Assembly (NCBI GenBank): GCA_963654365.1 | Contig: CAVJZP010000003.1 | Coordinates: 2,984 to 66,983, forward strand | Length of the DNA stretch: 64,000 bases | Reading direction: 5' to 3' | DNA from: Oscillospiraceae bacterium | GTDB taxonomy: Bacteria > Bacillota_I > Bacilli_A > RFN20 > CAG-288 | Part shown: positions 14,131-61,640 of the stretch, one piece after another | Layout: the number at the start of each line of letters is the position of its first letter | Numbering within the stretch: the first letter of the stretch is position 1 | Position numbers and translations under genes: made by a program | The notes under the pieces: model-generated | What the model saw: only the letters and a program-made list of their open reading frames with translations | Told to the model about the DNA's origin: nothing | Database searches by the model: none

Positions 14131-14140
14131 GGACTGATTC

Positions 14141-15354: not shown

Positions 15355-15367
15355 TATAAAAACAGAC

Positions 15368-15397
15368 AAAAAGCAGGGTATAGCGCCCTGCTTTTTC
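15368..15397. terminator. Bidirectional rho-independent terminator between convergent genes
   Basis: Hairpin AGCAGGG-tatagcg-CCCTGCT flanked by an A-run and a T-run. Confidence 0.75.
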
Positions 15398-15400
15398 CGT

Positions 15401-16948: not shown

Positions 16949-17724
16949 AAGAGTATCTCCATCGTTTCTTTTCTATTGAACATACAGTATCCATCTAAAT
17001 TATAGACATTTTTCCGATTGTAGACAAAAGGCTGTTTCTTCGTATCTACGAATATGCCACCTGCTTCCTGAATAAGGAGATTCGGAGCACAGATGTCCCA
17101 CTCCTTTGTCATCTTGGTATATCTCACGCAGCAATCCGCATCACCTGAGGCGATAGCAACCGCTTTTGTTGAAGCGCCAAGAGGTACAACCTCTTTGATG
17201 ATATCTCGGTTTTTATCGATTAGTTCTCTATCCTTTTCCGAGACATGTGTCTTAGATACTAAGAAAATGAGATTGTTTGTCTTATCGGATGTATGAAGAG
17301 GGACTGACTTCTCTCCATCAAGATAATAGGCTCCTTTTCCTTTGACAGCATAATAGATCTTATCCTGTGCAGGAATGGCAATCACGGACAAGACCGGCTT
17401 CTTATCGACGACCAATGCGATATTGACACCGAAGGAATCGTCTTTGTCCACAAAGTCGGATGTGCCATCGAGCGGATCGACAACAAAGAGCATTCGTTTA
17501 TCTAACCTTGTCAAGTCGTCAGCGTCTTCCTCGCTGAGCCATCCGATATCCGTAAAAGGGGAAAGCGTCTTGCGGATGATACCATTGGATGCGATATCAG
17601 CATCAGTGACAGGAGAGAAATCCTCCTTCTCGGATACATGGAAGCCTTTCCGATAGATGTCCATGATTTCCTTGCTGGATTTCTTTGCAGCAAGGATCAT
17701 GGCATTCAGTTCTTTCTCAAACAT
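16945..17724 (-). CDS. Inositol monophosphatase family / CysQ-like 3'(2'),5'-bisphosphate nucleotidase
   Basis: It has the motifs WLSEEDADD and VVDPLDGTSDF. Its start overlaps the nrnA stop and its stop overlaps the next start. Confidence 0.75.
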   Translation of the reverse strand: MFEKELNAMILAAKKSSKEIMDIYRKGFHVSEKEDFSPVTDADIASNGIIRKTLSPFTDIGWLSEEDADDLTRLDKRMLFVVDPLDGTSDFVDKDDSFGVNIALVVDKKPVLSVIAIPAQDKIYYAVKGKGAYYLDGEKSVPLHTSDKTNNLIFLVSKTHVSEKDRELIDKNRDIIKEVVPLGASTKAVAIASGDADCCVRYTKMTKEWDICAPNLLIQEAGGIFVDTKKQPFVYNRKNVYNLDGYCMFNRKETMEILL

Positions 17725-18671
17725 CAGATTTGTTCTGCCTTATTGAGCGCGTCTAAGACTTCCTGGACTCTGTCAAAGCTCTCTAAGCGGCATCCAGAGG
17801 CGGCCAAGTGACCGCCACCATTGAAGAGGGTAGCGACTTTCTGGACATTGTATTTCCCATTGGAACGGAGTTCGACACGGATGATGCCATCCTCCTGTTC
17901 GGTGAAGAATGCCCACATCGGATGGTCATCAAGCATCGAAAGCAGATTGACCTTGCCACTGGCTTCGTTCTGTGTGAGTCCAAGTTCCTGATAGGTCTTT
18001 TTGTCCATAAGGCAATAGGTGACAAGTCCATCGAATTTGAAGTTCTGATAGATGACAGAACGGTACTTAAGGTCGATAGAGGACTGACGGTACAAGGCGT
18101 TATACATCGACTTGTAATCGACTCCATAGCTGATCAGTTCTCCTGCGATTTCCAAAGTTTCCGGTTCTGCATCGTACTGAAATCTTCCGCTATCCGTGAC
18201 AAGTCCCATATAAAGGTAGTATGCGCACTGTGCAGTAGGAATCTTTCCATAGCGGAGAAGAAGACATTTTGCAATGATGAAAGTTGCAGAAGGTGCCTTC
18301 TCATCGCGGACGATGGGGAAGGTAAGATCGTACTGCTTCATATGGTGATCGATACAGACAATGGAGGGAGCTTTCAAGATGCGCTGGTCTTCTACGCGGT
18401 CAAGATCGGAGAGATCTACCATGAGGGCAAGAGAGTTCTCGATGATTTCATCTGACACATCATCGCTTTCCTCTACGACAGGAAGATAGGCCGGATGTGT
18501 ACCGACAGCATACACCTTCTTATCTGGGAAAAGTGCCTTCAAGGCATGCTTCATGCCTAAAACGGAACCGACGCAGTCACCATCCGGATTCTTATGTCCG
18601 AATATGACAATGCTGTCTGCTTTCTCTAATGCGGAGAATACTTTCTCTCTGTCTTCATCAAAATAACTCAT
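17724..18671 (-). CDS. nrnA: DHH/DHHA1 phosphoesterase NrnA (nanoRNase / pAp phosphatase)
   Basis: It has the motifs FGHKNPDGDCVGS, CIDHH and GGGHLAASG. Confidence 0.8.
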   Translation of the reverse strand: MSYFDEDREKVFSALEKADSIVIFGHKNPDGDCVGSVLGMKHALKALFPDKKVYAVGTHPAYLPVVEESDDVSDEIIENSLALMVDLSDLDRVEDQRILKAPSIVCIDHHMKQYDLTFPIVRDEKAPSATFIIAKCLLLRYGKIPTAQCAYYLYMGLVTDSGRFQYDAEPETLEIAGELISYGVDYKSMYNALYRQSSIDLKYRSVIYQNFKFDGLVTYCLMDKKTYQELGLTQNEASGKVNLLSMLDDHPMWAFFTEQEDGIIRVELRSNGKYNVQKVATLFNGGGHLAASGCRLESFDRVQEVLDALNKAEQI

Positions 18672-46303: not shown

Positions 46304-47578
46304 TCAGAGATAACTGATGCTAGAGGTAGAACCACAGTACGTCTTAGATGTATCCCAGTCCTGAGAAGACAGTTTTACCTTCACCGTTGCACCATTGGCC
46401 CCTGTCTTTCCCCACTGGTTCGTCGCTTCTGCCAACATGAGATAATCGGAGGAAGAAGCCTGAGTGAATGTATTGCCTGTCAAAGTGACAACAGCGGAAA
46501 TATTCGTCAGATAGAACATCGGAACACTACTAGTCGTGACTTCAAAAGTACAGTTCGATGCAGTGAAATAGTCCGTGCCTTCACTCGAATCACCTGAGAA
46601 GGACTGATAGATGAAGATTCCGCCAGCATCGATAGTGTGGGTTGAAGAATTGCTGTCGCTAGTTCCGGTTCTGTTTCCAGAGCCTGTGCAACTGAATCTG
46701 CAATCAGATAACGTAGCGCTAGAACCGCCTTCTACAACGACCATCTGAGCTTTATTGGCAACGCCATTAGAAGAAGTGACTGTAATTGAATCCGTAGAAT
46801 AGACCAAAGGAGAGCCATTGGAGTTCGTCTCCAATGTCATATTGCTGGCAACGATTGTTCCGCCGCCTCTGTCATTGGCTAAGGATGCACAGGACGCCCC
46901 ATGTGTCTTGATGTCAACGCCATCAGCAGTGATAGATCCTCCATAGGTTGTATGAAGGCCTCTCGAACCTGCAGATCCCGTTGTCGTGATTGTGGAATTT
47001 AAGATATGGATGGTTCCGCTATTGGTTGCAACGACCGCATTGGAACCATTGCTGGAAGTACTGATATCCGCATACTGAATCGTAGCGCTGGAAGAGGAAC
47101 CAGAGACAACGATTCCCGAATTGATTCCATAGAAGTTATAGTCATCACTGACCTGTCCATTGCTTGCACCGCTTCCGGACTTTGAAATATTCACATAATC
47201 AGAACTGGTACCTGTGATATTCAATGTTCCTCCGTTGATTACAAGTAAAACAACCTGGTCAGAGGAATTCGATGCGCTAAGATATTCTCCGGATGTGATG
47301 TTCACAGTCACACCATCGATCAGGTAAGCCGCAGATATGGTCTTGCTCGTTGTCTGATTTCCATACTTGAAGGAGACAGACGAACTTCCGGACTTGATTT
47401 CATTTCCGGATGTGTCATACACCGTGTCCGAAGAAGTTGAGGAACCAGAGGATGAAGAACTAGAAGAACCGGATGAAGTGCCTGTTGTCGAACCAGTGTC
47501 CGCCTTACCGGAACAGGATACACAGAGCATCATCAGTACCGTAGTCAGAACGAATTTTTTTAAGTTTTTCATAAACAA
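46304..47578 (-). CDS. S/T/G-rich lipoprotein with beta-helix-like repeats
   Basis: It has a signal peptide with LCVSC and a poly-Ser linker. It then has repeats of the type VNITSG / LNITGTSS / IHILNSTITTTGS. An alternative start lies at 47572. Confidence 0.65.
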   Translation of the reverse strand: MFMKNLKKFVLTTVLMMLCVSCSGKADTGSTTGTSSGSSSSSSSGSSTSSDTVYDTSGNEIKSGSSSVSFKYGNQTTSKTISAAYLIDGVTVNITSGEYLSASNSSDQVVLLVINGGTLNITGTSSDYVNISKSGSGASNGQVSDDYNFYGINSGIVVSGSSSSATIQYADISTSSNGSNAVVATNSGTIHILNSTITTTGSAGSRGLHTTYGGSITADGVDIKTHGASCASLANDRGGGTIVASNMTLETNSNGSPLVYSTDSITVTSSNGVANKAQMVVVEGGSSATLSDCRFSCTGSGNRTGTSDSNSSTHTIDAGGIFIYQSFSGDSSEGTDYFTASNCTFEVTTSSVPMFYLTNISAVVTLTGNTFTQASSSDYLMLAEATNQWGKTGANGATVKVKLSSQDWDTSKTYCGSTSSISYL

Positions 47579-49132: not shown

Positions 49133-49209
49133 GGCCCTGTAGCTCAGTTGGATAGAGTACCTGACTTCGAATCAGAGGGTCAAGAGTTCGAGTCTCTTCA
49201 GGGTCACCA
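49133..49209 (+). tRNA. tRNA-Arg (anticodon UCG), CCA encoded
   Basis: The cloverleaf was folded by hand. The acceptor stem is GGCCCTG/CAGGGTC and the D-arm is GCTC-AGTTGGATA-GAGT. The anticodon stem CCTGA/TCAGA carries the loop CT-TCG-AA, and the T-arm is AAGAG-TTCGAGT-CTCTT. Confidence 0.9.
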
Positions 49210-49222
49210 GTATCGTATATAG

Positions 49223-49247
49223 TCTGATGCACTCGCATCAGATTTTT
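49223..49247 (+). terminator. Rho-independent terminator after the tRNA
   Basis: Hairpin TCTGATGC-actc-GCATCAGA followed by TTTTT. Confidence 0.7.
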
Positions 49248-49304
49248 ATATTTATCCTAGTATCTCTATCCTAGTCATTTTCCGATAACATTTATAAAAA
49301 TCTA

Positions 49305-49368
49305 TTGCCTTTATAACAGTTTCAGTCTATAATTTTTTAAGTCACTTAATTAATTGCGCTAAGCAATT
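49305..49368 (+). promoter_or_regulatory. Near-consensus SigA promoter plus downstream inverted repeat (candidate ROK operator) of the sugar operon
   Basis: TTGCCT-17 nt-TATAAT, then AATTGC-gctaa-GCAATT between the -10 and the Shine-Dalgarno. Confidence 0.5.
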
Positions 49369-49385
49369 TGAGGAAGGATGTCATT

Positions 49386-51347
49386 ATGAACAAAGAAGAA
49401 ATGTATCAGTACTTCTTAAACCAGCTGAGCAATGGCGATTGCTATCTTGTCATCGGCAAAGGAAAAGCAAAGTACAAGATGAAGCGTGGTTCCTTCACTA
49501 CAAAGGACCATATCGTCGACAGAAGAAAGCTGACTTTCTCATTCCAGGACGGAAACCGTTATATCTTCACAGATGGAAAGGTACAGGCAGAGATTATTGT
49601 CGACAAGGATCCCTGGGTCAAATTCCACTTCCATGTCGATCCGGGATATAACCGATTCACACTGCGATTCAAGACATTCGAAGATGAGCATATCTATGGA
49701 TGCGGAGAGCAGTACTCCACATTGGATCTGAAAGGAAAGGATGTCCCAATCTGGGTCAGCGAACACCAACAGGTCATGAAGATTGTCAAGAAGCAGCTTA
49801 GAGAAAGACTCAAAGGTCCTGATCCGGATTACCAGGCTCCTTATAAGGACCATCAGACCTACTGCTCCACTCCTTCCTTCTTCTCCTCCAAAGGCTATGC
49901 TATCTACTGCCATGAGGATACCTACGGATTCTTGTCTTTCAAAAAGGATGAGCTCTTCATCAAGTTCAGACAGGTCCCTCAGTCTATCTCCTTACTCTGC
50001 GCTGATTCCTTATTGGAATTGTCTCAGGAAGTATCGAAATTAGTCGGCTTCCAGCCCCGTGTCCCCTCTTGGGTGAATGACGGGGTCATCCTCGCAATTC
50101 AGGGAGGAAGCGAAGTCCTCTTAAAGAAGTATGAGGAAGCGAAGAAAAAAGGGCTGAAGATTGCCGGAATCTGGTGTCAGGACTGGTGCGGAAACGTTGT
50201 GACCAGTTTCGGATATCAGGTCTTCTGGAACTGGGAAGCGGATGAGAAGCTCTATCCGAATCTCAAAGAGATCATAAAGAAGCTCAATTCCGAAGGCGTA
50301 AGATTCTTAGGATACATCAACACCTTCTTAAAAGAGGGTGGCCCTCAGTATCTCGAAGCCAAAAAGAAAGGCTTCCTGATCCGTCATAAGGACGGCTCTG
50401 TCTACCACATCAAATCCACTACCTTCAATGCAGGAATCGTCGATCTGACCAATCCTTCCGCCAAGAGATGGTATATCGATATCATCAAGAAGAACATGAT
50501 CGAATACGGACTCTCCGGATGGATGGCAGACTTCGGAGAATATCTTCCGACCGATTCTGTCTGCTACGGAGGAGAAAGCGAGAAACTTCACAACCGTTGG
50601 CCGACCATGTGGGCAAAATGCAATTACGACGCTGTCAAAGAGTGCAGAAAAGAAGAGGAATGCTTCTTCTTCTCCAGAGCCGCCTACGGACATACCTTCC
50701 AGTACACCAACTCCATGTGGAACGGAGATCAGCATGTCGACTTCTCCGACGAATACGGCTTAGGTTCCGTTATCCCTGCTTCTCTTTCCTTAGCCTGCTC
50801 TGGCGCTGGTGTCATCCACTCGGATATCGGCGGATATACGACCATCACTGCCTTATATCCGATGAAGAGAAATGCAGAGCTCTTCAACCGTTGGGCAGAG
50901 ATGAACATCTTCACTCCGGTCTTCCGCACTCACGAAGGAAACCAGCCGAAGAACAATGTCCAGTACGATGACAAGGATACCTATGATGAGTTTGTCAAAA
51001 ACACAAGATACTATGTCGCCTTGAAGGAATATAGAGAAGCACTATACGAGGAGTATTACACAAACCACACTCCGATGATCCGTCCTCTCTTCTTCCATTA
51101 CGATGAGAAAGAGGCCTACGAGAACAAAAAGGAGTTCATGTTCGGAAGCGATGTCATTGTTTCACCAGTTCTTAGACCAAATGAAACAAAGCATAAATAT
51201 TACCTTCCGAAAGGTGAATGGATTCAGTTCTTCACGAATAAAGAAATCCCGTCCGGTGAAGGAGAGTTGGATTCTCCGTTAGGACTCCCTATCGCCTTCT
51301 ACAGAAAAGACAGCAAGTTCAGATCATTATTTGAAAAGATAAATTGA
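49386..51347 (+). CDS. GH31 alpha-glycosidase of the YihQ (sulfoquinovosidase) subfamily
   Basis: It shares long motifs with my recollection of E. coli YihQ (HIYGCGEQYS, GIWCQDW, GWMADFGEYLPTD, WAKCNYDA, MWNGDQ, HSDIGGYTT, FTPVFRTHEGNQP). The start is at MNKEEMYQ, after GAGGAAGGA. Confidence 0.9.
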   Translation: MNKEEMYQYFLNQLSNGDCYLVIGKGKAKYKMKRGSFTTKDHIVDRRKLTFSFQDGNRYIFTDGKVQAEIIVDKDPWVKFHFHVDPGYNRFTLRFKTFEDEHIYGCGEQYSTLDLKGKDVPIWVSEHQQVMKIVKKQLRERLKGPDPDYQAPYKDHQTYCSTPSFFSSKGYAIYCHEDTYGFLSFKKDELFIKFRQVPQSISLLCADSLLELSQEVSKLVGFQPRVPSWVNDGVILAIQGGSEVLLKKYEEAKKKGLKIAGIWCQDWCGNVVTSFGYQVFWNWEADEKLYPNLKEIIKKLNSEGVRFLGYINTFLKEGGPQYLEAKKKGFLIRHKDGSVYHIKSTTFNAGIVDLTNPSAKRWYIDIIKKNMIEYGLSGWMADFGEYLPTDSVCYGGESEKLHNRWPTMWAKCNYDAVKECRKEEECFFFSRAAYGHTFQYTNSMWNGDQHVDFSDEYGLGSVIPASLSLACSGAGVIHSDIGGYTTITALYPMKRNAELFNRWAEMNIFTPVFRTHEGNQPKNNVQYDDKDTYDEFVKNTRYYVALKEYREALYEEYYTNHTPMIRPLFFHYDEKEAYENKKEFMFGSDVIVSPVLRPNETKHKYYLPKGEWIQFFTNKEIPSGEGELDSPLGLPIAFYRKDSKFRSLFEKIN

Positions 51348-51366
51348 GAAATAGGAGGAAAACACA

Positions 51367-52047
51367 ATGAAATATTTTCTTGATTCAGCGAAGTTAGATG
51401 AGATCGATTACGCTTATAAAAACTATGCTATCGATGGTGTCACAACCAATCCGAAGCACATCATGGCATCCGGAAAGCCGTTTCTTGTCGCCATCAACGA
51501 TATCGCAGATTGGCTGAAGGAGAATAACCTTTTAGGAGTCGAGAAATTCCCCGTCTCTGTCGAGATCAATCCGCATCTCGATAATGCAGCTGATATGATC
51601 AGCGAAGCCAAGAAGATCTCCGCTATCTGTGAGAACTTCGTCATCAAAATCCCATGCACCACAGAAGGTGTCAAGGCTGCGCTTCAGTTAGAGAGACAGG
51701 GTATCAGAACCAATGTCACTTTGGTCTTCTCTCCTTCTCAGGCTATCCAGGCCGGAAGAATCGGCGCCAAGTTTGTCTCTCCTTTTGTCGGATGGAAAGA
51801 AAATAACGGCGAAGATACCTATCCTTATATGTCACAGCTTGTCAACATCTACAAAGAGAAAGGTTACAAGACCGAGATTATCGTCGCTGCTGTCAGAAAC
51901 GGCAAGCAGATTGCCGATGCCGCTGAGATGGGGGCTGATATTGTAACAGCCGGTCTTGCTGTCTATGAAGATAGCTTCAATCATCCCTTCACTACCTATG
52001 GCTTAGGTGTCTTCCAGAATGCCTGGGATCATACGAAAGGAAACTGA
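51367..52047 (+). CDS. Second, divergent TalC/Fsa-type transaldolase (candidate 6-deoxy-6-sulfofructose transaldolase)
   Basis: It contains FLDSAKLDEI, GVTTNPKH and the Schiff-base Lys motif VIKIPCT. It is clearly a paralogue of 14695..15354. The functional call rests on context. Confidence 0.8.
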   Translation: MKYFLDSAKLDEIDYAYKNYAIDGVTTNPKHIMASGKPFLVAINDIADWLKENNLLGVEKFPVSVEINPHLDNAADMISEAKKISAICENFVIKIPCTTEGVKAALQLERQGIRTNVTLVFSPSQAIQAGRIGAKFVSPFVGWKENNGEDTYPYMSQLVNIYKEKGYKTEIIVAAVRNGKQIADAAEMGADIVTAGLAVYEDSFNHPFTTYGLGVFQNAWDHTKGN

Positions 52048-52050
52048 TCC

Positions 52051-52887
52051 ATGAAAGTAGCATTCATCGGCCTTGGCATCATGGGAATGCCAATGGCAAA
52101 TAATGTCAGCAAAAAATATGATCTCATCGGATACGATGTGATCAAAAAAGAGACACCTTTCCCCTTTGCTTCCTCCTATAAGGAGTGTGTCGACTTCGCT
52201 GATGTCATCATTTCCATGGTCCCCAAAAACGAGCATATGCTCTCTCTTTACAAGGAGATCAAGCCTTTCTTGAGAAAAGGACAGATCTGGATCGATATGT
52301 CCACGATCTCTCCTAGCACCAATCAGACTGTCGCAAAAGACTTGGAAGGAACGGGCGTTGAGATTTTGGATTGCCCCGTTGTCAAATCACAGCCTGCCGC
52401 TATCAAAGGCGAGCTTGGCATCTATGTCGGCGGAAAGAAGGAAGTCTATGAAGCAGTCAAAGAGATTCTCTCCTGCATGGGAAAAAACATCATCTTCATG
52501 GGTGACCATGGCGCCGGACTTCAGATGAAGATCCTTCACAACGCTTTGGTAGGTGAAATCCAGAACGGCGTCAACGAGATTCTCGGCTTAGCCAAGAAAT
52601 TAGGACTGAACCAGGAAGAGGTCGTCGAAGCCTTCGGATACGGAGGGGCTTCCTGCTTCTATCTCGATACGAAAGCAAAGAACATCATCACAAACACCTA
52701 TCCGACCGCTTTCTCCGTTGAGAACATGAACAAAGATGTCCATTTTGCAAAAGAGATAGCCAGTGAAATCAATAAGGACTGTCCGTCCTTGAACCGTGTC
52801 GTAGAAGTCTATGAAAAGGCGATGGAAAAGGGATTGGCGAAAGAAGATTTCTCCGCCTCCTATAAAATTGTCAACGAGGAAAATTAA
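52051..52887 (+). CDS. Beta-hydroxyacid (HIBADH-family) dehydrogenase (candidate 3-sulfolactaldehyde reductase)
   Basis: It has the Rossmann N-terminus MKVAFIGLGIMGMPMA in a 278-aa product. The family call is solid, while the substrate is inferred from context. Confidence 0.8.
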   Translation: MKVAFIGLGIMGMPMANNVSKKYDLIGYDVIKKETPFPFASSYKECVDFADVIISMVPKNEHMLSLYKEIKPFLRKGQIWIDMSTISPSTNQTVAKDLEGTGVEILDCPVVKSQPAAIKGELGIYVGGKKEVYEAVKEILSCMGKNIIFMGDHGAGLQMKILHNALVGEIQNGVNEILGLAKKLGLNQEEVVEAFGYGGASCFYLDTKAKNIITNTYPTAFSVENMNKDVHFAKEIASEINKDCPSLNRVVEVYEKAMEKGLAKEDFSASYKIVNEEN

Positions 52888-52889
52888 AT

Positions 52890-54221
52890 ATGAGAAAGCC
52901 TATTATCGGTATTGTCTGCTTAGTCAGAAAAACCTTTGATTATGAAACTGCCTTCCAGTTATACAAAGAGAGAAGCGCAAAAGTCATGGAAGACAAGAGC
53001 GTCGACTGGGTCTATTATCCAGAGATGGTGATTGAACCAGGCGAAGCAAAGAAAGCCGCGGACTATTTTGTCGAGAAGCATGTTGATGCCGTCGTTGTCG
53101 TCTCTGCCACCTTCCACCTCGGCGGACTGGCTTTGATTCTTCACAACATCGTCAAGCGTCCTTTCCTGTTGCAGGGATATAACGAGCTGCCTTACAACGG
53201 CGGAAAAATCCGTCTCAATGCCGTCTGCGGTGTCAATCTCAACGCCTCCAACCTTTATAAAGGCGGCGTCGATGACTTCATCGTCTATGTCGGCGACGAC
53301 ATCGATCACGACTGGGTCACGGCAATCAAGATGAAGACGGCTTTGGAGAATTCCAATGTCGGTCTCATCGGTTTCCACGCTCAGGGATTCTACAATGTCG
53401 GTGTGGATGAACTGCACCTCTATAAGGAACTCGGTGTCCTGATTTCCCATTATGAGCTTTCCGATTTCTTCGGAGGAGAAGCAAACGAGGAAGAGATCGA
53501 CAAGGAAGAGAAGAATCTTCGCGAGATCTTCGACTGTTCCAAACTCAATGATTTCCAGGTAAGACAGGTCTCTAGACTGATTGTCGTATCGGAAAGATTC
53601 ATGAAGGAGAAAGGCTTGGATGTTGTCGCTATCCGCTGCTGGCCGGAATTCGCCAAGAACTACGGTGTCTCTCCTTGCGCTATGATGTCCGTCCTTCAGT
53701 CAAGAGGCATTCTATTAGCCTGTGAAGGTGATATCGAAGCCGCATTGAGCATGGTAGCTGTAAAAGCTGCCGGAGAAGAGACTCCTTTCATGGCCGATCT
53801 CTCCCAGGTCAATTATGAGGAGAACTACGCTCTCCTTTGGCATGACGGCGTTGCTCCCTGCAATCTCTGGGATCATCGCTGCAACCGTTCCTTGGAAACC
53901 TATTTTGCTGGTGGAAAAGGTGTCACAGCTGACTTCGTCTTAAAACCGGGAAAGATGTCGATTCTAAGAATCGATACGGCCAGAGGAAAGACAAGAATCT
54001 ATTACGAAGAGGGAGAAGCCTTTGAGATGAACAAGGATCTCTCCGGAACCTATGCGAAGGTCGTATTTTACCGCCCGATCAACGAAGTGATCGACACTGT
54101 CGCCTATACTGGTGTTGCGCATCATGTCATCATGGGATACGTCCAGTATAAGAAGGCAATGAGATATCTGGCCAAAATGATGAATTGGGAGATTCTCGAT
54201 GAAAATACAAAATGCTACTGA
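52890..54221 (+). CDS. L-fucose/L-arabinose isomerase-like family protein
   Basis: The 443-aa product has an N-terminal flavodoxin-like pattern. It also has the motif ACEGDIEAAL, typical of the FucI/AraA metal site. Confidence 0.7.
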   Translation: MRKPIIGIVCLVRKTFDYETAFQLYKERSAKVMEDKSVDWVYYPEMVIEPGEAKKAADYFVEKHVDAVVVVSATFHLGGLALILHNIVKRPFLLQGYNELPYNGGKIRLNAVCGVNLNASNLYKGGVDDFIVYVGDDIDHDWVTAIKMKTALENSNVGLIGFHAQGFYNVGVDELHLYKELGVLISHYELSDFFGGEANEEEIDKEEKNLREIFDCSKLNDFQVRQVSRLIVVSERFMKEKGLDVVAIRCWPEFAKNYGVSPCAMMSVLQSRGILLACEGDIEAALSMVAVKAAGEETPFMADLSQVNYEENYALLWHDGVAPCNLWDHRCNRSLETYFAGGKGVTADFVLKPGKMSILRIDTARGKTRIYYEEGEAFEMNKDLSGTYAKVVFYRPINEVIDTVAYTGVAHHVIMGYVQYKKAMRYLAKMMNWEILDENTKCY

Positions 54222-54813
54222 TCCCGAGTTTTCGGAATACGGTTCTCTTTTATCCGTTGACACAAAGGAGATCGTCGACTATCTGAAGACGAAAGCCAAG
54301 ATGCCGGAAGAGAACAATATCTATGTAAGAGATGACAAAGACATGTCCTCTTTGAAAGGCATGAAGGAAATAAAGGAAAGTGTATATGGTCTATCCGATA
54401 TTGAGACCGGATACTGCAATGGATACAATTCCCTTCTCAACTGCATGGAATACCATGCCTGCCCGGAAGTGGATATTGCAGCCGACGATCTGATTCTCCT
54501 TTTGGCGAAGCCCTCTGACATCAAGGATGGAATCTTGAATTCCTCCGATGTTAAGGCTTTCCTTGTAAGGAGAGGAGAGGCTGTCTCACTCTATCCTTAT
54601 ACGCTTCATTTCTCCCCTTGCAAACTGAGCGACAACGGATTCCGATGCGCTATCATCCTTGCGGACAAGACCAATATGGATCTTACTGAAACTCCAAAGG
54701 ATACAAAACTTTGGAAGGTAAATAAATGGCTTTTGGCACATAAGGATTCCAAACAAGCCACTTTAGGTGCTTATGTCGGAATTGTCGGAGAAAACATCAA
54801 GGTCGATTACTGA
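54199..54813 (+). CDS. Small cupin-like protein, possibly DUF4867 / SqvD-type sulfoquinovose isomerase
   Basis: The 204-aa ORF overlaps the previous gene by 23 nt and has a GGGAGA Shine-Dalgarno. The family assignment rests on size, context and recollection, not on a verified motif. Confidence 0.5.
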   Translation: MKIQNATDPEFSEYGSLLSVDTKEIVDYLKTKAKMPEENNIYVRDDKDMSSLKGMKEIKESVYGLSDIETGYCNGYNSLLNCMEYHACPEVDIAADDLILLLAKPSDIKDGILNSSDVKAFLVRRGEAVSLYPYTLHFSPCKLSDNGFRCAIILADKTNMDLTETPKDTKLWKVNKWLLAHKDSKQATLGAYVGIVGENIKVDY

Positions 54814-54815
54814 TC

Positions 54816-55532
54816 ATGCTCTATGATGCTCTATTCATCCTAATCATATTCTTAAGCAATATCATACAGACGATAACCGGATTTGCAGGAACCGCTCTTG
54901 CGATGCCTCTCTCCCTCCGTTTAGAGGGGAGTGATGTTGCAAAGCCGGTTCTGAACCTTGTCGCGCTTTTAGTCTCCGTCTATGTTGTCATCGCTCACTT
55001 CAAGGATATCGACTGGAAGCATTTCCTTACGATCATCATCACCGTCGGCCTTGGATTTGCGACTGGCTATCTTGTCGATATGATACCGATGCAGAGCAAG
55101 ATTCTTCTCTACATCTATGGATCGATTGTCATTCTGATCGCCATCCTTTTCTTCTTCATCGACTTTGAGAAGATCAATCTTCCGAAATGGCTGATGATAC
55201 TGTTCCTCTTCTTAGGCGGAATCATCCATAAGCTCTATGTCTCTGGCGGACCGTTTGTTGTCATCTACGCTCTTCATGAGCTAAAGGACAAAAACAAGTT
55301 CCGTGCCACCTTATCCCTATTATGGATCGTTCTGAATTCCGTCCTCTTTACGACCGAGATGATCAGTGGCATCTTCACGGCTCACACCTGGATTCTCTTT
55401 GGAATCGGAGCTGGTGTTACTGTCCTTTCCTTAGTTCTCGGTGCGCTGATTGCTCCGAAGCTATCGAAAAAGGTATTTTTGAAGATCACCTGTGTCCTTT
55501 TGTTCATCTCCGGTGTTACACTATTAATATGA
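54816..55532 (+). CDS. TauE/SafE family anion (sulfonate/sulfite) exporter
   Basis: The 238-aa product has about 7-8 TM helices. The N-terminal pattern IIQTITGFAGTALAMPL is typical of the DUF81/TauE family. Confidence 0.75.
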   Translation: MLYDALFILIIFLSNIIQTITGFAGTALAMPLSLRLEGSDVAKPVLNLVALLVSVYVVIAHFKDIDWKHFLTIIITVGLGFATGYLVDMIPMQSKILLYIYGSIVILIAILFFFIDFEKINLPKWLMILFLFLGGIIHKLYVSGGPFVVIYALHELKDKNKFRATLSLLWIVLNSVLFTTEMISGIFTAHTWILFGIGAGVTVLSLVLGALIAPKLSKKVFLKITCVLLFISGVTLLI

Positions 55533-56497
55533 CAATGAATTTGACCGATACCCAGAAATCCATCCTGAAGATTCTGTTTGTCGAGAAGGAGAGTTCCCGC
55601 TCTCTGTTAGCAAAAAGGCTTTCTCTGACAAACGCTGCTTTGACGTTGTCCTTAAAGCCATTGATTGAGGACAAGTTCGTTCTGGAGAGCAAGAATGATG
55701 CTCAGAAAGTCGGAAGAAAGGAATTGAAACTTTCCTTGAATCCGAAGCATGGCTACTTCTTCGGCATCGACATCAAAAAGAACAATACCTACTACTCTCT
55801 TATGGATTTTTCCTCTGGTCTTGTGAAAGTCACAAACAGCAGGGAAACGGATATCGCTTCCTTCCTGTCCGGATACGAAAAGAAGATCCTCTCAATCGGA
55901 ATCACGATGCGTGGAAACGCATCCTGGGATTCCTTTACGAAAAAACAGGAGACTCTCTATCAGGAGCTCCTTCCGCTCTCTCTTCCTATCCATGTCTTCA
56001 ACAACGTCGACTGTTTAGCCGATATCTATTCTCTCCAACACAAAGAGGACAAAAACTTCCTCCTCATCAAATATGGCCCTGGTGTTGGTTCCTCTATCTA
56101 TGTCAATGGGATGTCCTTAGGAAACCAATCCGAACTCGGTCATACCTATTACCACGATAAGACCGTGGAAGAGACGATTTCCTATCTCACCCTGCTCAAT
56201 AAGGATGTCAACGAAGAGGAAGGAACCGCACTCCTTTTAGAAAAAGAAGAGAAGCTGAAGAAAGTCATTCACGTCCTTGCCTTCTCCCTTCTGAACGCGG
56301 ATTCTCTTCTCTCCTTGCAGAAGATCATCCTCTCCGGAGCCTTACTATCCAAAGAGGAGATCATCGAAAGATTGAAGGAGGAGATTCACTCTTACAAAGA
56401 GGATTTCGTTCTCGATAAGCTTTGCCTCTATCCTGACTACAACACGCTGAACACAAAGAAGAGCTGCATCGGCGCCTTCATCAAAGAATTCGAATAA
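55529..56497 (+). CDS. ROK-family transcriptional regulator (wHTH + sugar-kinase-like domain)
   Basis: There is an ATGA start/stop overlap with the exporter gene. It has an N-terminal wHTH (SRSLLAKRLSLTNAALTLSLKPLIEDKFV) and a ROK-like ELGH motif. The ORF-track N-terminal extension from 55322 was rejected. Confidence 0.7.
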   Translation: MTMNLTDTQKSILKILFVEKESSRSLLAKRLSLTNAALTLSLKPLIEDKFVLESKNDAQKVGRKELKLSLNPKHGYFFGIDIKKNNTYYSLMDFSSGLVKVTNSRETDIASFLSGYEKKILSIGITMRGNASWDSFTKKQETLYQELLPLSLPIHVFNNVDCLADIYSLQHKEDKNFLLIKYGPGVGSSIYVNGMSLGNQSELGHTYYHDKTVEETISYLTLLNKDVNEEEGTALLLEKEEKLKKVIHVLAFSLLNADSLLSLQKIILSGALLSKEEIIERLKEEIHSYKEDFVLDKLCLYPDYNTLNTKKSCIGAFIKEFE

Positions 56498-56502
56498 AAA
56501 TT

Positions 56503-56533
56503 AGGCTATTAGAGCTGTTCTAGTAGCCTTTTT
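56503..56533 (+). terminator. Terminator of the sugar operon
   Basis: Hairpin AGGCTA...TAGCCT followed by TTTTT. Confidence 0.6.
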
Positions 56534-56543
56534 ACGTCTAACG

Positions 56544-56597
56544 AAAAGAGACTGTCTATCCTACCGCGGATCTGCGATATCAAGACAGTCTCTTTTC
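56544..56597 (-). terminator. Terminator of the GPH transporter gene
   Basis: A 12-bp stem AAGAGACTGTCT...AGACAGTCTCTT with flanking A and T runs. Confidence 0.7.
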
Positions 56598-56615
56598 TAT
56601 AACGCTGAAAGGAGA

Positions 56616-58133
56616 TTATTCGTTTCCACCGATGACGATTTCGTTGTTTTCAGCCTGTTTGGCTAATAGCGCTTCCTTTTCATCCTGCAAGGCTTCTGTC
56701 TTCTTCTTGCTCAAGGTGTAGAGAAGAAGCATGACAAGACCCATGAGGAGGAATAGACCTGCTGGGATAGCGGTTGCCATGTAATACATGACGTTCAACG
56801 TATCTGCGCTCTGAACCTGACCAGAACCAGACTTATAATGTGTGCCAAGCAAAGCACCATTGACAGCGATAGCGGCAACGACCTGACCTAACTTTCTGAA
56901 GAACATGAAGACAGAATAGGAGGAACCATCGTTTCTAAGGCCTGTCTTGACTTCGACATCATCGATGGCATCTGTGGCAAGTGCCCAGATCTCAAGACCG
57001 ATGATCGATAATCCGAAACCGCTGATGACGCAGAAGAAGAGGAAGATGAACGGATACTTGATGATGATATCCTTCATGAAGATCATGATGAAGTTCGGAG
57101 CAGCAGCGACAAAGCCACCGACAGCACAGAGTTCCTTCTTTCCGAATTTACGGACCAACTTGCCAGCGCAGAGCATCAGAATGATCATCGGACCATAGGT
57201 GCAGGCCTGAGAGGCAAGGTTCATCCAGTTCTGACCGAAGAGATCGTTGAAGAGGTAGGTGTAGAAAGACTGCGTAAACATCTGACCAGCCAATAAGAGA
57301 AGACCAGTAAGACAGACAGCGACGAAGTTGCGGTTCTTGAGCAAGATCTTTGCAATCTTGAAGGTTTCGCCTTTGACATGCGGCTTCTGAACAGCGACAA
57401 CTCTTTCCTTGTTGTTGCGGTAGGCGACAAAGAGGAGAACAGCGGCGATAGCAGCCATGACGGAGACACCGATGATGATTGGCATATACTGAACGGTCGT
57501 AAGTGCCTTTCCGTTTTCGCCGAGGATGACATTTCCGCTCTCATCGGTCACATTCTTCGAATAGAACATCGTGACAAAGAGGACAGGGATCGAACCTAAG
57601 GCAGCACCAGCAGAACGGAAGACGGAAAGCTTGTTTCTTTCCTTGGCATCGGTTGTGACAACAGAGGCCAACGATCCATAAGGAATCTGATGCATCGTAT
57701 AGATCATACCGAAGAGGATATAGGTGACAGCCGCATAGACACAGACACCGACTTTGCCCATCTTGTCAGCTAATCCTGGCCAAGGCAAAAACATCAGTAT
57801 CGTAGCTAAGGCCAAGGGGATAGCGACCCATTTCATCCAGACGCGATATCTGCCTTCCTTTCCTGGCTTGCGGATATCAGCGATTCTACCCATGATAGGA
57901 TCATTGACCGCATCCCAGACACGGGCGAGGATGAACATGAGCATGATGAACATCGGCGTCAGTCCCAAGACATCCGTATAGTACTTCTGCAAAATCGTAG
58001 TGACCGTAGAGAAACATAGACATCCCGCAAAATCTCCTAACGCATAACCGATATAATCGTTAGCGTGCAGACCCGATGTCTGCGAAATATAGGAACGGCT
58101 CTTCACTTCTTCATTGTTGACATGGTCTTCCAT
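56616..58133 (-). CDS. MFS transporter, glycoside-pentoside-hexuronide (GPH) cation symporter family (YihO/MelB-like)
   Basis: The 505-aa product has 12 TM helices and an N-terminal GYALGDFAG pattern. Coordinates are taken from the ORF track. Confidence 0.85.
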   Translation of the reverse strand: MEDHVNNEEVKSRSYISQTSGLHANDYIGYALGDFAGCLCFSTVTTILQKYYTDVLGLTPMFIMLMFILARVWDAVNDPIMGRIADIRKPGKEGRYRVWMKWVAIPLALATILMFLPWPGLADKMGKVGVCVYAAVTYILFGMIYTMHQIPYGSLASVVTTDAKERNKLSVFRSAGAALGSIPVLFVTMFYSKNVTDESGNVILGENGKALTTVQYMPIIIGVSVMAAIAAVLLFVAYRNNKERVVAVQKPHVKGETFKIAKILLKNRNFVAVCLTGLLLLAGQMFTQSFYTYLFNDLFGQNWMNLASQACTYGPMIILMLCAGKLVRKFGKKELCAVGGFVAAAPNFIMIFMKDIIIKYPFIFLFFCVISGFGLSIIGLEIWALATDAIDDVEVKTGLRNDGSSYSVFMFFRKLGQVVAAIAVNGALLGTHYKSGSGQVQSADTLNVMYYMATAIPAGLFLLMGLVMLLLYTLSKKKTEALQDEKEALLAKQAENNEIVIGGNE

Positions 58134-58333
58134 AGTTCTTTTTATGCCATAAACGGCAACTCCTGTTTAAAATCATACAACAAATGTAAGCGCATTACTA
58201 GTATTTTTTAAGCAACTTAAAAAATTATTTCCCTTGCGAGATGAAAAAGACCTGTTTCTCCTTTCTTTATATATAGAATAGGATATCTGGATAAGATATG
58301 TGATTCATCGATTCAATGCTTGAGCGAAGATTG

Positions 58334-58355
58334 AAAACCGGATTTTCCGGTTTTT
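58334..58355. terminator. Orphan terminator-like hairpin inside the 560-bp spacer
   Basis: AAAACCGG-atttt-CCGGTTTTT is symmetrical, with A and T runs. No ORF of 25 aa or more with a Shine-Dalgarno lies on either side. Confidence 0.5.
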
Positions 58356-58598
58356 ACTAAATGGCACTTTTGTCAAAAAAGTTTTGATGTCGCTCTTTCA
58401 CTTGCCTCCCTCTGTTTTCCTATCAAAATTGGACAGGCATTCAATTTAAATCGTTTTTGTTCTCCTTTTGAAATTATGTGCTGAAATCATATGTTTTTCT
58501 TGTTTTGCCGATTTGATTGAGAAATCGTATTTTCTCAACCATATGGCGCTTGTAAAGTTGCTTGAATTACTAAAAATTCACTAAAAAATTATTCTCGT

Positions 58599-58613
58599 TT
58601 TTGCAATGCAAAA
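58599..58613. promoter_or_regulatory. Perfect 15-bp palindrome upstream of nrdG (candidate regulator site)
   Basis: The palindrome is TTTTGCA-A-TGCAAAA. A second half-site, CATTGCA, lies 25 nt downstream and overlaps an extended -10-like TGCATAATA. Confidence 0.3.
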
Positions 58614-58696
58614 CGATTGTTTTCCCCTGTTTTTCATTGCATAATAGATACGCTATTTCGTGCTAAGAAACATCTATGAAATAAGGAGGAATCGTC

Positions 58697-59212
58697 TTGA
58701 AAGTCATCATCGCAGGAATCGAAAGACACTCCTTTGTCAATGGCCCTGGTACCCGTTATGTCCTCTTCTTCCAAGGCTGCACTCACCGCTGTGAGAAATG
58801 CCAGAATCCGGACACATGGGATATCGAAAAGGGAACAGAATACGATGCCGATGATATCGTAAATGATATCCTCTCCACGAAATATCTTGATGGCGTCACC
58901 TTCTCCGGCGGCGATCCTCTGTTGCAGGCAAAAGCCTGTCACTATATCGCCAAAAAGCTAAAAGAGAAGAACATCAACATCTGGTGCTATACCGGATGGA
59001 CGTATGAGGCGATTGAAAGCGGTAAGGTATCTATCGATGCCAAAGACGCTTTGGATGATATCGATACTCTGATCGATGGTCCCTTTGTCTACTCTCTTCT
59101 CTCCGACAAGTGCCTTTACAGGGGAAGCACCAATCAGAGGATCATCAACATCAGAAAGAGCAGGGAAGAAAAAAGAGTCGTAGAAGATGACGTGTTCGAT
59201 TACGGTTTATGA
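58697..59212 (+). CDS. nrdG: Anaerobic ribonucleoside-triphosphate reductase activating protein (radical SAM)
   Basis: It has a TTG start 7 nt after AAGGAGG. It contains the CxxxCxxC cluster CTHRCEKC and FVNGPGTR. Confidence 0.9.
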   Translation: MKVIIAGIERHSFVNGPGTRYVLFFQGCTHRCEKCQNPDTWDIEKGTEYDADDIVNDILSTKYLDGVTFSGGDPLLQAKACHYIAKKLKEKNINIWCYTGWTYEAIESGKVSIDAKDALDDIDTLIDGPFVYSLLSDKCLYRGSTNQRIINIRKSREEKRVVEDDVFDYGL

Positions 59213-59225
59213 AAGAGGTAGTGCT

Positions 59226-61640
59226 ATGAAAAACATCATCAAAAGAGACGGTACGGTTGTCGCATTCGAACCAGAGAAGATTGAAAACGCCATTGCCAAG
59301 GCTTTCATTTCCACAAGCGAAATTCCTGCTAGGGATATCTCTGCGATGGCAAGAGCGGTGGAACTGATCGTTGAGTCTACGCTCAACAGCGAGAACAAGG
59401 ATTCTGCTACTGTCGAAGAGATTCAGGATGTCGTCGAAAAGACCCTGATGAAGGTCGGATATCAGAACACCGCAAAGGCGTATATCCTTTACCGCAACCA
59501 GCATGAGAAAGTAAGACAGGCGGAGAACACCATCATCGACTACAAGAAGCTTGTCGACGGATATATCGGAACAGATAAGGACTGGAGAGTCAAAGAGAAC
59601 TCTACCGTCACTCTTTCTGTCGGCGGTCTTATCCTCTCCAACTCCGGCGCCATCACTGCCAATTACTGGCTCAGCGAGATCTATGACAAAGAGATTTCCG
59701 ATGCCCACCGTCAGTGCTTTATCCACCTTCACGATTTAAGCATGCTCACCGGATACTGTGCCGGCTGGTCTTTGAAGCAGCTCATCAAAGAGGGATTAGG
59801 CGGAGTCGTCGGAAGAATCACTTCCTCTCCGGCCAAGCATCTCTCTACTCTCTGCAACCAGATGGTCAACTTCTTAGGCATTATGCAGAACGAATGGGCC
59901 GGCGCTCAGGCGTTCTCCTCCTTTGACACATATTTAGCGCCTTTCGTCAAAGCCGATCATTTATCCTATAAAGAAGTGAAGCAGTGCGTTCAGTCCTTCA
60001 TCTATGGCGTCAATACACCCTCCCGCTGGGGAACACAGGCTCCGTTTACCAACATCACATTGGACTGGACTGTCCCGGAAGACATGGTCAACATGCCTGC
60101 CATCATCGGCGGAAAAGAGATAGACTTCACCTATGGTGACTGCAAGGAAGAGATGGACATGGTCAACAAGGCCTTCATCGAGATCATGATCGAAGGAGAC
60201 AGCGAAGGAAGAGGATTCCAGTATCCGATTCCTACCTACTCCATCACAAAGGACTTCGACTGGTCTGAGACAGAGAACAACAGACTTCTCTTCACGATGA
60301 CAGCAAAATACGGAACTCCGTATTTCTCCAACTATATCAATTCCGACATGAAGCCGAGCGATGTCAGAAGCATGTGCTGCCGACTTCGTCTTGACCTCCG
60401 TGAACTGAGAAAGAAGGGAGGCGGATACTTCGGAAGCGGTGAATCCACCGGAAGCATCGGTGTCGTCACCCTCAACCTTCCTAGAATCGCTTACCTTTCC
60501 AAGTCCAAAGAGGACTTCTATTCCATTCTCGATCATTACATGGATATCGCTGCCCGCTCCCTCAACATCAAGAGAAAGGTCATCACCCGTCTTCTCGACC
60601 AGGGCATGTATCCTTATACAAAGAGATACTTAGGAACCTTCGACAATCACTTCTCCACCATCGGCCTTGTCGGCATGAATGAGTGCTTAGAGAACGCCAA
60701 ATGGTTCTTAGGCGGAAACCTTACCACCGAAGAGGGTAATCATATGGCAGAAGAGATTCTCAATCATATGAGAGAAAGACTCTCCGACTATCAGGAGAAG
60801 TATGGTGCTCTCTTCAACTTGGAGGCAACACCGGCAGAAAGCACCACTTACCGCTTTGCCAAGCACGATGTCGCAGAGTTCAAGGATATCAAGACCGCCT
60901 GCAAGAACGGTGGTTCCCCCTTCTATACCAACTCCTCTCATCTCCCGGTCAATTACACCGACGATATCTTCAAAGCCTTGGAGATGGAAGATAACTTACA
61001 GGTCCTCTACACCTCAGGCACGGTCTTCCACGCCTTCTTAGGCGAGAAGCTTCCGGACTGGAAGAGCGCGGCCTCCTTAGTCAAGAAGATCGCCTATAAC
61101 TTCAGACTTCCTTACTTCACCCTCTCTCCTACTTATTCCGTCTGCAGCGAACACGGCTATATCTCCGGCGAACACTTCAAGTGCCCGACCTGCGGAAAGG
61201 AAGCCGAGGTCTATTCCCGTATCACAGGATACTATCGTCCGGTCAAGAACTGGAACGACGGAAAAGTCTCCGAATTCAATTCCAGAAAGACCTATACTCC
61301 CTATGAGTTAAAAGGCGTCGAGACTCCAAACGCGGAGATTCAGTCTACCATTGAAAGAGTAAAAGCCGCATCGACACCTTGCGCTTGTCATCATCACCAT
61401 CAGAACCGTCTCACCCTCATCACTACCTCCACCTGCCCGAACTGCCGCATCGCAAAGCATCTCCTCGATGACAAGGGAATCGAATACGATGTCCTTGTCG
61501 CCGATAAGGATGAGAAAGGAAAGGAACTGGCAAAGAGACTCAACATCACCCAGGCTCCTACCCTTATCGTCGAAGACGAGGATGAAAATGTCCTCTTAGA
61601 CAATCTCTCCTCTATCCGTTCCTACATCGACAATCTGTAA
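59226..61640 (+). CDS. nrdD: Anaerobic (class III) ribonucleoside-triphosphate reductase with a C-terminal glutaredoxin/NrdH-like domain
   Basis: It has an ATP-cone (IIKRDGTVVAFEPEKI), a finger-loop SMCCRLRLD, the Zn site CSEHG...CPTCG and the glycyl radical motif RITGYYRP. An extra ~115 aa follows, containing CACHHHH and a CPNC thioredoxin-fold domain. Confidence 0.9.
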   Translation: MKNIIKRDGTVVAFEPEKIENAIAKAFISTSEIPARDISAMARAVELIVESTLNSENKDSATVEEIQDVVEKTLMKVGYQNTAKAYILYRNQHEKVRQAENTIIDYKKLVDGYIGTDKDWRVKENSTVTLSVGGLILSNSGAITANYWLSEIYDKEISDAHRQCFIHLHDLSMLTGYCAGWSLKQLIKEGLGGVVGRITSSPAKHLSTLCNQMVNFLGIMQNEWAGAQAFSSFDTYLAPFVKADHLSYKEVKQCVQSFIYGVNTPSRWGTQAPFTNITLDWTVPEDMVNMPAIIGGKEIDFTYGDCKEEMDMVNKAFIEIMIEGDSEGRGFQYPIPTYSITKDFDWSETENNRLLFTMTAKYGTPYFSNYINSDMKPSDVRSMCCRLRLDLRELRKKGGGYFGSGESTGSIGVVTLNLPRIAYLSKSKEDFYSILDHYMDIAARSLNIKRKVITRLLDQGMYPYTKRYLGTFDNHFSTIGLVGMNECLENAKWFLGGNLTTEEGNHMAEEILNHMRERLSDYQEKYGALFNLEATPAESTTYRFAKHDVAEFKDIKTACKNGGSPFYTNSSHLPVNYTDDIFKALEMEDNLQVLYTSGTVFHAFLGEKLPDWKSAASLVKKIAYNFRLPYFTLSPTYSVCSEHGYISGEHFKCPTCGKEAEVYSRITGYYRPVKNWNDGKVSEFNSRKTYTPYELKGVETPNAEIQSTIERVKAASTPCACHHHHQNRLTLITTSTCPNCRIAKHLLDDKGIEYDVLVADKDEKGKELAKRLNITQAPTLIVEDEDENVLLDNLSSIRSYIDNL

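Follow-up and report, generated by a model that had tools for sequence, protein, structure and literature searches.

What compound is degraded by the seven closely packed genes and the convergent symporter gene that lie beside a tRNA-Arg gene in this 64,000-nucleotide stretch of contig CAVJZP010000003.1 (hereafter, the window), and by which route? The block is very probably (we put the probability at about 0.85) a regulon with which an uncultured Bacilli bacterium of the gut or rumen ferments sulfoquinovose (SQ), a sulfo-sugar of plants, by the sulfo-transaldolase pathway (sulfo-TAL or sulfo-SFT). This reading draws on gene content, gene order, homology, residue conservation, and the conservation of the promoter and operator, all of which were obtained directly. 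The pathway is already known; judged from these features, the host lineage appears to be new, as do several variant traits, namely a glycosidase, SftG, that lacks a hallmark arginine, an isomerase, SftI, of a subfamily that we call “type B”, and a ROK-like repressor paired with a conserved operator.

The published sulfo-TAL set consists of the importer SftA, the sulfoquinovosidase (SQase) SftG, the isomerase SftI, the transaldolase SftT, the DUF4867 protein SftX and the TauE exporter SftE, with the sulfolactaldehyde step carried out by either the reductase SftR or the dehydrogenase SftD (Frommeyer et al. 2020, PMC7491151), and the families PF00923, PF02952, PF03446 and PF14833 have been given as markers of the pathway (Sharma et al. 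2025, PMC11968277). The window encodes a sulfofructose (SF) transaldolase, a PF02952 isomerase, a predicted reductase, a predicted SQase, a predicted importer, a TauE exporter and a DUF4867 protein, all co-located in an operon and one convergent gene. These are exactly the members of the SftA/G/I/T/R/X/E set that was defined by experiment (PMC7491151, PMC11968277). A first-pass annotation of this DNA had proposed a sulfo-TAL cluster yielding 2,3-dihydroxypropanesulfonate (DHPS), and the match in gene content, together with the non-housekeeping character of SftT and SftR described below, supports that proposal. It had also considered two components to be at odds with the textbook pathway; if the FucI-like isomerase and the cupin were meant, that view does not stand, because PF02952 and DUF4867/SftX are among the published sulfo-SFT markers (PMC11968277) and both proteins are thus canonical parts.

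Reference clusters for comparison were drawn from metagenome loci, with those of Eubacterium rectale (L124-L129) identified by a GH31 protein 99% identical to PDB 6PNR and those of Priestia megaterium (L099, L105) by a transaldolase 99% identical to PDB 8BC3. Identities to the E. rectale cluster were 63% for SftT, 48% for SftR, 40% for SftG, 38% for SftE, 36% for SftX and 23% for SftI; to the P. megaterium cluster they were 66% for SftT, 41% for both SftX and SftG, 29% for SftA and 25% for SftI.

SftT matched the cryo-EM-characterised P. megaterium SF transaldolase (BmSF-TAL, PDB 8BC3) with 66-68% identity (E = 1.8e-95, 322 bits). The best ordinary TalC reached 158 bits, and SftT fell under the fsa_talC equivalog cut-off (180 vs 246). 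When aligned with BmSF-TAL it retains the catalytic triad of Asp6, Glu61 and Lys89 as well as Trp138, Arg126 and Arg172; at position 30 the window protein has Lys and the P. megaterium enzyme has Arg. Ordinary transaldolases of the TalB/FSA type have a phosphate-binding Arg at the position of Trp138. The sulfonate is reportedly bound in SF transaldolase by an “Arg-Trp-Arg” triad, of which the first Arg could not be matched to a position in SftT. Lys89 is the Schiff-base lysine of SF transaldolase (PMC12890257).

SftR, which is encoded next to SftT, was 48% identical (241 bits) to its E. rectale counterpart, likewise encoded beside SftT; scores were lower against the best HIBADH (121 bits) and against YihU (100 bits, 28% identity). 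Comparison with characterised proteins, as the first-pass annotation had recommended, therefore places the transaldolase and the reductase outside the housekeeping clades, as it had expected: assignment of either to such a clade fails because both are closer to sft-cluster proteins (322 vs 158 bits and 241 vs 121 bits) than to TalC, HIBADH or YihU. The catalytic Lys171 of YihU is kept in SftR, and SftR is predicted to be a sulfolactaldehyde reductase that produces DHPS.

Several properties of the reductase and the isomerase weigh against this assignment of the pathway. SftR has His and Val at the positions of the YihU sulfonate residues Asn174 and Ser178, and it lies under every curated NCBIfam cut-off, including that of the YihU equivalog NF012005 (124 bits, cut-off 348); its pattern of sub-threshold NCBIfam matches is the same as that of the E. 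rectale cluster reductase. SftI is just 23-25% identical to characterised SftI proteins, and its match to the NCBIfam SftI model NF048012 reaches 181 bits versus a curated cut-off of 700. That match is full-length, and in calibrating the model we obtained 831 bits for P. megaterium SftI and 415 bits, also under the cut-off, for E. rectale SftI. The AlphaFold model of SftI (pLDDT 83, pTM 0.88) gave TM scores of 0.82 with L-arabinose isomerase and 0.73-0.76 with L-fucose isomerase, which is consistent with a metal-dependent aldose-ketose isomerase; the SftI alignment contains invariant Glu, Asp and His columns. SftI belongs to a second FucI/AraA-like subfamily, type B, and is predicted to convert SQ to sulfofructose. 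Other sft clusters (L086, L107) encode type-B homologues of about 50% identity, and such homologues also lie directly beside canonical SQases that have Arg at position 301 (L080, L102). At these last two loci (L080:2846-11935 and L102:2745-11926) the genes form compact modules in which an Arg-301 SQase and a type-B isomerase are joined by a ROK regulator and an ABC sugar transporter, with no transaldolase, kinase or aldolase nearby; the remainder of their pathway may sit elsewhere in the genome.

SftX (Table 1) scored 151 bits against PDB 9gyy and keeps the 2His-2Glu site, its E-Y-H-x3-E motif and a distal His aligning to P. megaterium Glu97, His99, Glu103 and His150. The DUF4867 structure is that of an Fe/Zn cupin with a 2His-2Glu site for which no function was found (Sharma et al. 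2025, PMC11968277), and SftX appears to be a conserved metal-cupin accessory protein of the pathway. SftA was 25-26% identical to YihO/YihP and 40% identical to the SftA of other sft clusters, and is predicted to import SQ or sulfoquinovosyl glycerol.

From these features we infer the identity of all substrates, a product that would be DHPS and not sulfolactate, the way in which the transporters work, and repression. In the proposed pathway SftA would bring in SQ or sulfoquinovosyl glycerol, SQ would be freed by the GH31 enzyme SftG, and SftI would convert it to 6-deoxy-6-sulfofructose. SftT would then form a Schiff base at Lys89 and transfer the C1-C3 glycerone unit to glyceraldehyde-3-phosphate or erythrose-4-phosphate, giving fructose-6-phosphate or sedoheptulose-7-phosphate and releasing 3-sulfolactaldehyde. 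SftR would reduce the sulfolactaldehyde to DHPS, with recycling of NADH, and DHPS would leave the cell through SftE.

Seven tightly packed genes and a convergent GPH symporter had been described at this locus, and all were recovered at the same positions (Table 1). From sftG onward the gene junctions are gaps of 19, 3 and 2 nucleotides (nt), a 23-nt overlap, a 2-nt gap and a 4-nt overlap. The only two plus-strand terminators in the region follow the tRNA-Arg gene and the regulator gene, which makes it plausible that the seven genes sftG-T-R-I-X-E-regulator form a single transcription unit. The near-consensus promoter that had been reported is present; it was one of four sites tied at the top score (10/12) among 20 promoter-like sites in the region, and such sites were not enriched there (20 found vs 14.9 +/- 4 expected). 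The promoter call is credible because it is conserved in relatives, not because of its motif score: 34 related genomes retain the TTG and the TATAAT at the same spacing, with the sequence in between diverged. The reported start of the block about 100 nt past a tRNA-Arg gene with its own terminator was borne out by a measured distance of 96 nt from that gene to the sftG promoter. The sftG start is most likely the ATG at 49386, which has a ribosome-binding site, GAGGAAGG, 8 nt upstream; the MNKEE start is kept in relatives and the homologue in a 95% identical genome is called as 653 residues. For the regulator the start was corrected to the ATG at 55529, which overlaps the sftE stop codon as ATGA and gives a protein of 322 rather than 391 residues.

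Table 1. Positions, strands and supporting evidence for features of the predicted SQ regulon and the adjacent tRNA gene, numbered from the first nucleotide of the window.
Feature	Position	Strand	Evidence or remark
tRNA-Arg (anticodon TCG)	49133..49209	+	ARAGORN; Rfam tRNA 64.7 bits; operon neighbour, not member
Terminator-like hairpin and T-run 3' of tRNA-Arg	49221..49244	+	10 pairs, then TTTATATTTA
sftG operon promoter: TTGCCT (49305-49310), 17-nt spacer, TATAAT (49328-49333)	49305..49333	+	10/12 matches
Predicted operator O1, TTAAGTCACTTAA	49337..49349	.	Palindrome TTAAG-N3-CTTAA, 3 nt past the sftG -10 box
O1, extended form, AATTTTTTAAGTCACTTAATTAATT	49331-49355		
sftG, GH31 (YihQ family, Gln-301 variant), predicted sulfoquinovosidase	49386..51347	+	Open reading frame open from TTG 49368
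sftT, sulfofructose transaldolase, TAL_FSA	51367..52047	+	PDB 8BC3 match
sftR, NAD(P)-dependent beta-hydroxyacid dehydrogenase family, predicted sulfolactaldehyde reductase	52051..52887	+	Pfam NAD_binding_2 and NAD_binding_11
sftI, FucI/AraA superfamily aldose-ketose isomerase (type B), Fucose_iso_C	52890..54221	+	NCBIfam NF048012, sub-threshold
sftX, DUF4867 metal-binding cupin	54199..54813	+	Pfam DUF4867 (PF16161) 223.8 bits, cut-off 28.7
sftE, TauE/SafE family, predicted DHPS exporter	54816..55532	+	Pfam TauE 69.3 bits
ROK-like regulator, 322 residues, predicted repressor	55529..56497	+	Pfam ROK 27.4 bits, cut-off 22.9; MarR-like HTH matches
Intrinsic terminator closing the sftG-to-regulator operon	56503..56529	+	12-pair stem, then TTTTT
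Terminator-like hairpin 3' of sftA	56543..56597	-	-34.5 kcal/mol, z = -5.5, then UUUUCGUU
sftA, GPH-family cation symporter, 505 residues, convergent	56616..58133	-	TIGR00792 gph 255 bits, cut-off 231
Predicted operator O2, TTAAGTTGCTTAA, upstream of sftA	58208..58220	.	3 nt past -10-like AATAAT (58229-58224, -)

The two promoters appear to be under common control. The exact sequence TTTAAG-N3-CTTAA occurs only twice in the 64 kb, once at each promoter, with equal spacing from the -10 element, and the copy upstream of sftA lies inside a perfect 23-bp palindrome (ATTTTTTAAG-CAA-CTTAAAAAAT, 58203-58225). At sftG the arrangement of -35 TTG, 17-nt spacer, TATAAT, TTT and palindrome is maintained in the 34 related genomes within diverged surroundings, and most relatives have an exact or one-off variant of the operator at 75-100 nt upstream of sftA. 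All relatives that carry the ROK-like gene and whose upstream sequence could be read have the operator, whereas L039-L044 and L048 lack both gene and operator. The regulator has an N-terminal winged helix-turn-helix and a degenerate ROK domain. Against its assignment as the repressor of both genes it can be said that the ROK match is weak (27 bits), that the zinc-binding Cys motif is missing, the protein reading GH-TYYHDK where CxCGxxGC would stand, and that the sftA promoter has a poor -35 element. The ROK-like protein probably represses both promoters through the TTAAG-N3-CTTAA palindromes, by occlusion: it would sit on the palindrome abutting each -10 box, and SQ or a derivative would release it. 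This gives a concrete predicted repressor-operator pair for SQ-responsive regulation in Firmicutes.

A second conserved element, a GCGC-centred near-palindrome, was found between the operator and the sftA start (58186-58198; minus strand GTAATGCGCTTAC). In many relatives it reads GGAAAGCGCTTCC, and it resembles, imperfectly, a catabolite-responsive (cre) site.

The first-pass annotation suggested that the block could be an acquired island, starting at the tRNA-Arg gene and ending at a spacer of about 560 bp, and we consider horizontal acquisition by insertion at this tRNA gene unlikely, if not without support. The cluster does begin close to the tRNA gene, and one relative, with an 86% identical HADH, keeps the HADH/tRNA-Arg pair, which is followed there by Flg_new, cyclase and SbcCD genes instead of sft. 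The upstream flanks vary among related species, two of which carry a tRNA-Leu gene upstream, and in the closest relative with flanking sequence (L003) there is an insertion sequence (IS) element within the cluster. Against insertion, no integrase or recombinase was found in the flanks, and a search of the distal border turned up no att-type copy of the tRNA 3' end, the only repeat spanning both ends being the promoter/operator motif. The GC content of the cluster is 0.457 versus 0.441 elsewhere, its codon-usage distance is 0.103 versus a null of 0.093 +/- 0.011, and the closest relatives share the site. The tRNA-Arg gene adjoins the HADH gene in L003 and L130 too. In the relative with the 86% identical HADH neither sft nor nrdGD follows the tRNA-Arg gene, and another relative has no tRNA gene there. 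Since the far flank, nrdGD, is also not conserved in L130, the pattern indicates a synteny breakpoint rather than a clean insertion. The proposed comparison of synteny thus did produce a relative that has the tRNA-Arg locus and no cluster, but the far flank differs too, and the island is not established. The spacer itself is as described in length and composition (58134-58696, 563 bp, GC 0.36), but instead of a boundary with foreign DNA it contains the sftA promoter and operator and the region upstream of nrdG. No riboswitch or other RNA element was detected in this spacer or in the leader by an Rfam scan of the whole window at gathering thresholds, which returned the tRNA only.

Two further indications of foreign origin were considered and rejected. 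The GC, GC3 and codon usage of the cluster are no more extreme than those of other gene blocks in the window, and in place of mobility genes the neighbours are ordinary ones (ABC transporter, TetR, HADH, NrdGD, CoaX, an ECF component and PNPase).

The most unusual component is SftG. It has the Pfam GH31 domains, passes the NCBIfam YihQ equivalog PRK10426 with 688.6 bits (cut-off 553; in calibration, E. rectale SftG scored 1043 and a protein of another sft cluster with Gln at position 301 scored 797), and matches the structures 8r56 (506 bits), E. rectale SftG 6PNR (504 bits) and Escherichia coli YihQ (499 bits). The catalytic nucleophile and acid/base (E. coli D405 and D472) are kept, with the WMADFGE and GDQHVD segments aligned gap-free. 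The sulfonate pocket of SQases is formed by Arg301, Trp304 and Tyr508 (PMC8006165). SftG keeps Trp304 and Tyr508, along with Gln262 and Gln288. What counts against it as an SQase is the loss of the pocket Arg301, which is replaced by Gln, and the further replacement of Arg294 by Val and Lys300 by Tyr, so that the segment reads FGYQVFWNW where E. coli, E. rectale (FGKRLQWDW) and 8r56 share FGKR..W.W. No basic residue is left in the 294-301 loop. Each of the 46 related genomes, with SftG identities as low as 54%, has the three replacements R301Q, R294V and K300Y; most Gln-301 proteins retain Arg294, and the window clade does not.

GH31 homologues were collected by a search of 1.84 billion representative proteins. 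In a neighbour-joining tree of 139 sequences, built without bootstrap or maximum-likelihood support, SftG fell within a group of 650-670-residue proteins that all have Gln-301 and that is sister to the clade of E. coli YihQ and E. rectale SftG. The earlier description of SftG as a “YihQ-subfamily GH31” is therefore right insofar as the protein passes PRK10426, but in this tree it falls in a sister clade without the sulfonate-binding Arg. Of the 80 metagenome GH31 loci that we compared, which were picked by similarity to the query so that the proportions are biased, 43 encode Gln-301 and 37 Arg-301 proteins. At least one sulfoglycolysis marker lies nearby at 34 of the 43 Gln-301 loci versus 29 of the 37 Arg-301 loci, and SftT adjoins at 22 and 11 of them, respectively. 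The linkage of Gln-301 GH31 genes to sulfoglycolysis genes is clear, and it is as tight as that of their Arg-301 counterparts. Within the family Gln-301 covaries with G368T, E369T and N474H, residue 474 adjoining the acid/base, and because of this covariation the concerted changes look like a remodelled pocket rather than decay.

Whether the Gln-301 proteins are true sulfoquinovosidases, binding the sulfonate without the canonical Arg in a pocket remodelled by R301Q, G368T, E369T and N474H, with the window SftG as an extreme form, is in our estimate an evenly balanced question; alternatively, the clade may have shifted its substrate range among sulfoquinovosides. A more radical alternative, and an improbable one, is that the pathway operates as described but SftG acts on another alpha-glucoside or a 6-substituted glycoside, leaving the cell dependent on free SQ from other organisms. 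The three replacements conserved through the window clade, the concerted changes at residues 368, 369 and 474, and the position of SftG outside the clade of E. coli YihQ and E. rectale SftG would all fit such a shift in activity, but the equal linkage to marker genes, the proximity of SftT at 22 of 43 loci, the match to the YihQ equivalog and the four retained residues (Trp304, Tyr508, Gln262, Gln288) argue for an SQase, as does the place of sftG as first gene of the operon and the sole GH31 gene in the window. No description of an Arg-less SQase motif was found in the searchable literature, which is not proof that it is undescribed. If the Gln-301 proteins are SQases, then a substantial share of SQ degraders in the gut and rumen would escape surveys that rely on the Arg-Trp-Tyr triad or on canonical yihQ. 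The Gln-301 clade is large and uncharacterised, and the window SftG offers a defined variant for enzymology.

That the cluster degrades a non-sulfonated or other sugar, such as a 6-deoxyhexose or a ketose, and resembles sft only superficially is very improbable: DUF4867 proteins and FucI-like isomerases also pair in aldose/ketose clusters unrelated to sulfonates (PMC11968277), and SftR and SftI lie under curated family cut-offs, but SftT has Trp138 and shares 66-68% identity with a transaldolase proven to act on SF, a TauE/SafE exporter and a YihQ-family GH31 are encoded in the same operon, and all seven components occur together, a combination also seen in the E. rectale and Priestia clusters, for which induction has been shown experimentally.

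The gene order G-T-R-I-X-E is common to 48 species-level genomes, most of which also have the regulator and sftA. With the operon in these genomes from gut and rumen, the predicted transaldolase route extends to widespread uncultured Bacilli, and many sulfoglycolysis clusters have a glycosidase without the hallmark Arg and an isomerase of the second subfamily, which bears on the recognition of SQ degraders in metagenomes. The PNPase encoded in the window is 85-88% identical to that of metagenome-assembled genomes (MAGs) titled “Bacilli bacterium”. The MAG titles of L001-L046 (Alistipes, Bacteroides, Faecalibacterium, Parasutterella, Slackia, Prevotella and others), given to clusters that are about 85-97% identical, look misassigned, and organism titles were not used for taxonomy because they contradict one another for clusters that are about 90% identical.

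The relatives also differ in gene content around sftA. In about 17 of them (L012:13659-17185; L005, L008-L011, L017, L019, L023, L026, L027, L030, L032-L034, L045, L046) two extra genes follow sftA in the same operon, one for a 445-residue carboxylesterase (Pfam COesterase) and the other for a second GH31 of 743 residues that has Lys at the Arg301 position and falls outside the YihQ model. These enzymes could deacylate or otherwise process sulfolipids ahead of SftG; both are absent from the window. In L003 the IS element (DDE transposase and DUF772) lies between the regulator gene and sftA (13707-18283), an insertion that also holds genes for two secreted proteins of 198 and 654 residues without Pfam matches. 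Compared with window positions 49210-49385, L003:5917-6480 has about 400 nt extra between the tRNA terminator and the sftG promoter, including a degenerate second copy of the promoter region that lacks the operator.

Beyond the spacer lies nrdG (58697-59212), for the activase of anaerobic ribonucleotide reductase, which overlaps nrdD by 26 nt, the pair spanning 58697-61640; the 817-residue NrdD has an N-terminal ATP-cone and a C-terminal glutaredoxin domain. Elsewhere in the window three large open reading frames (8625-12635, 38270-40339 and 46304-47578; 1336, 689 and 424 residues) have no Pfam match. In the 424-residue product, a lipoprotein-like N-terminus leads into a Ser/Gly-rich linker.

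Compared with known systems, the regulator appears to share with ROK repressors of the NagC/Mlc/XylR type an N-terminal winged helix-turn-helix followed by a ROK sugar-kinase-like domain, and its predicted operator is likewise a palindrome that overlaps the promoter; it differs from them in being shorter (322 residues), in its weak ROK match (27 bits) and in lacking the Cys zinc motif. The E. coli yih cluster (YihQ, YihS, YihV, YihT, YihU, YihO/P, CsqR), which encodes the sulfo-EMP pathway, has DHPS as its end product, as predicted for the window, and likewise includes a YihQ-family GH31 (499 bits), GPH transporters (25-26% identity) and a sulfolactaldehyde reductase of the same superfamily (28%). 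Its core chemistry relies on a kinase and an aldolase, whereas the window has a transaldolase; its isomerase YihS has an AGE-type fold that differs from the fold of the window isomerase, and its repressor is of the DeoR rather than the ROK-like type. YihQ has Arg301 and YihU has Asn174 and Ser178, none of which are kept in the window SftG and SftR.

The sft/sqv cluster of Priestia (Bacillus) aryabhattai SOS1 and P. megaterium DSM 1804 resembles the window in its SF transaldolase, DUF4867 protein (PDB 9gyy), GH31, FucI-like isomerase and TauE exporter. In Priestia, oxidation of sulfolactaldehyde by an aldehyde dehydrogenase (SftD/SlaB) yields sulfolactate, in contrast to the window, which encodes a reductase and no dehydrogenase. 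The Priestia regulator is of the GntR type (PMC7491151) and that of the window is ROK-like; the Priestia importer (MFS/GPH) is 29% identical to the window SftA, and the isomerases of the two are 25% identical. The sft cluster of E. rectale (Agathobacter rectalis; EUBREC_2585-2596; PMC7491151, PMC11968277) differs from the window in gene order, in the Arg301 of its SftG where the window has Gln, and in an isomerase that is 23% identical and of a different subfamily. The window, unlike E. rectale, has a GPH symporter and a ROK-like regulator encoded in the operon. The two clusters otherwise share the same functional set, from the GH31 to the TauE exporter, and the sulfo-TAL route of E. rectale ends in DHPS through the reductive branch expected of an anaerobe, as would that of the window.

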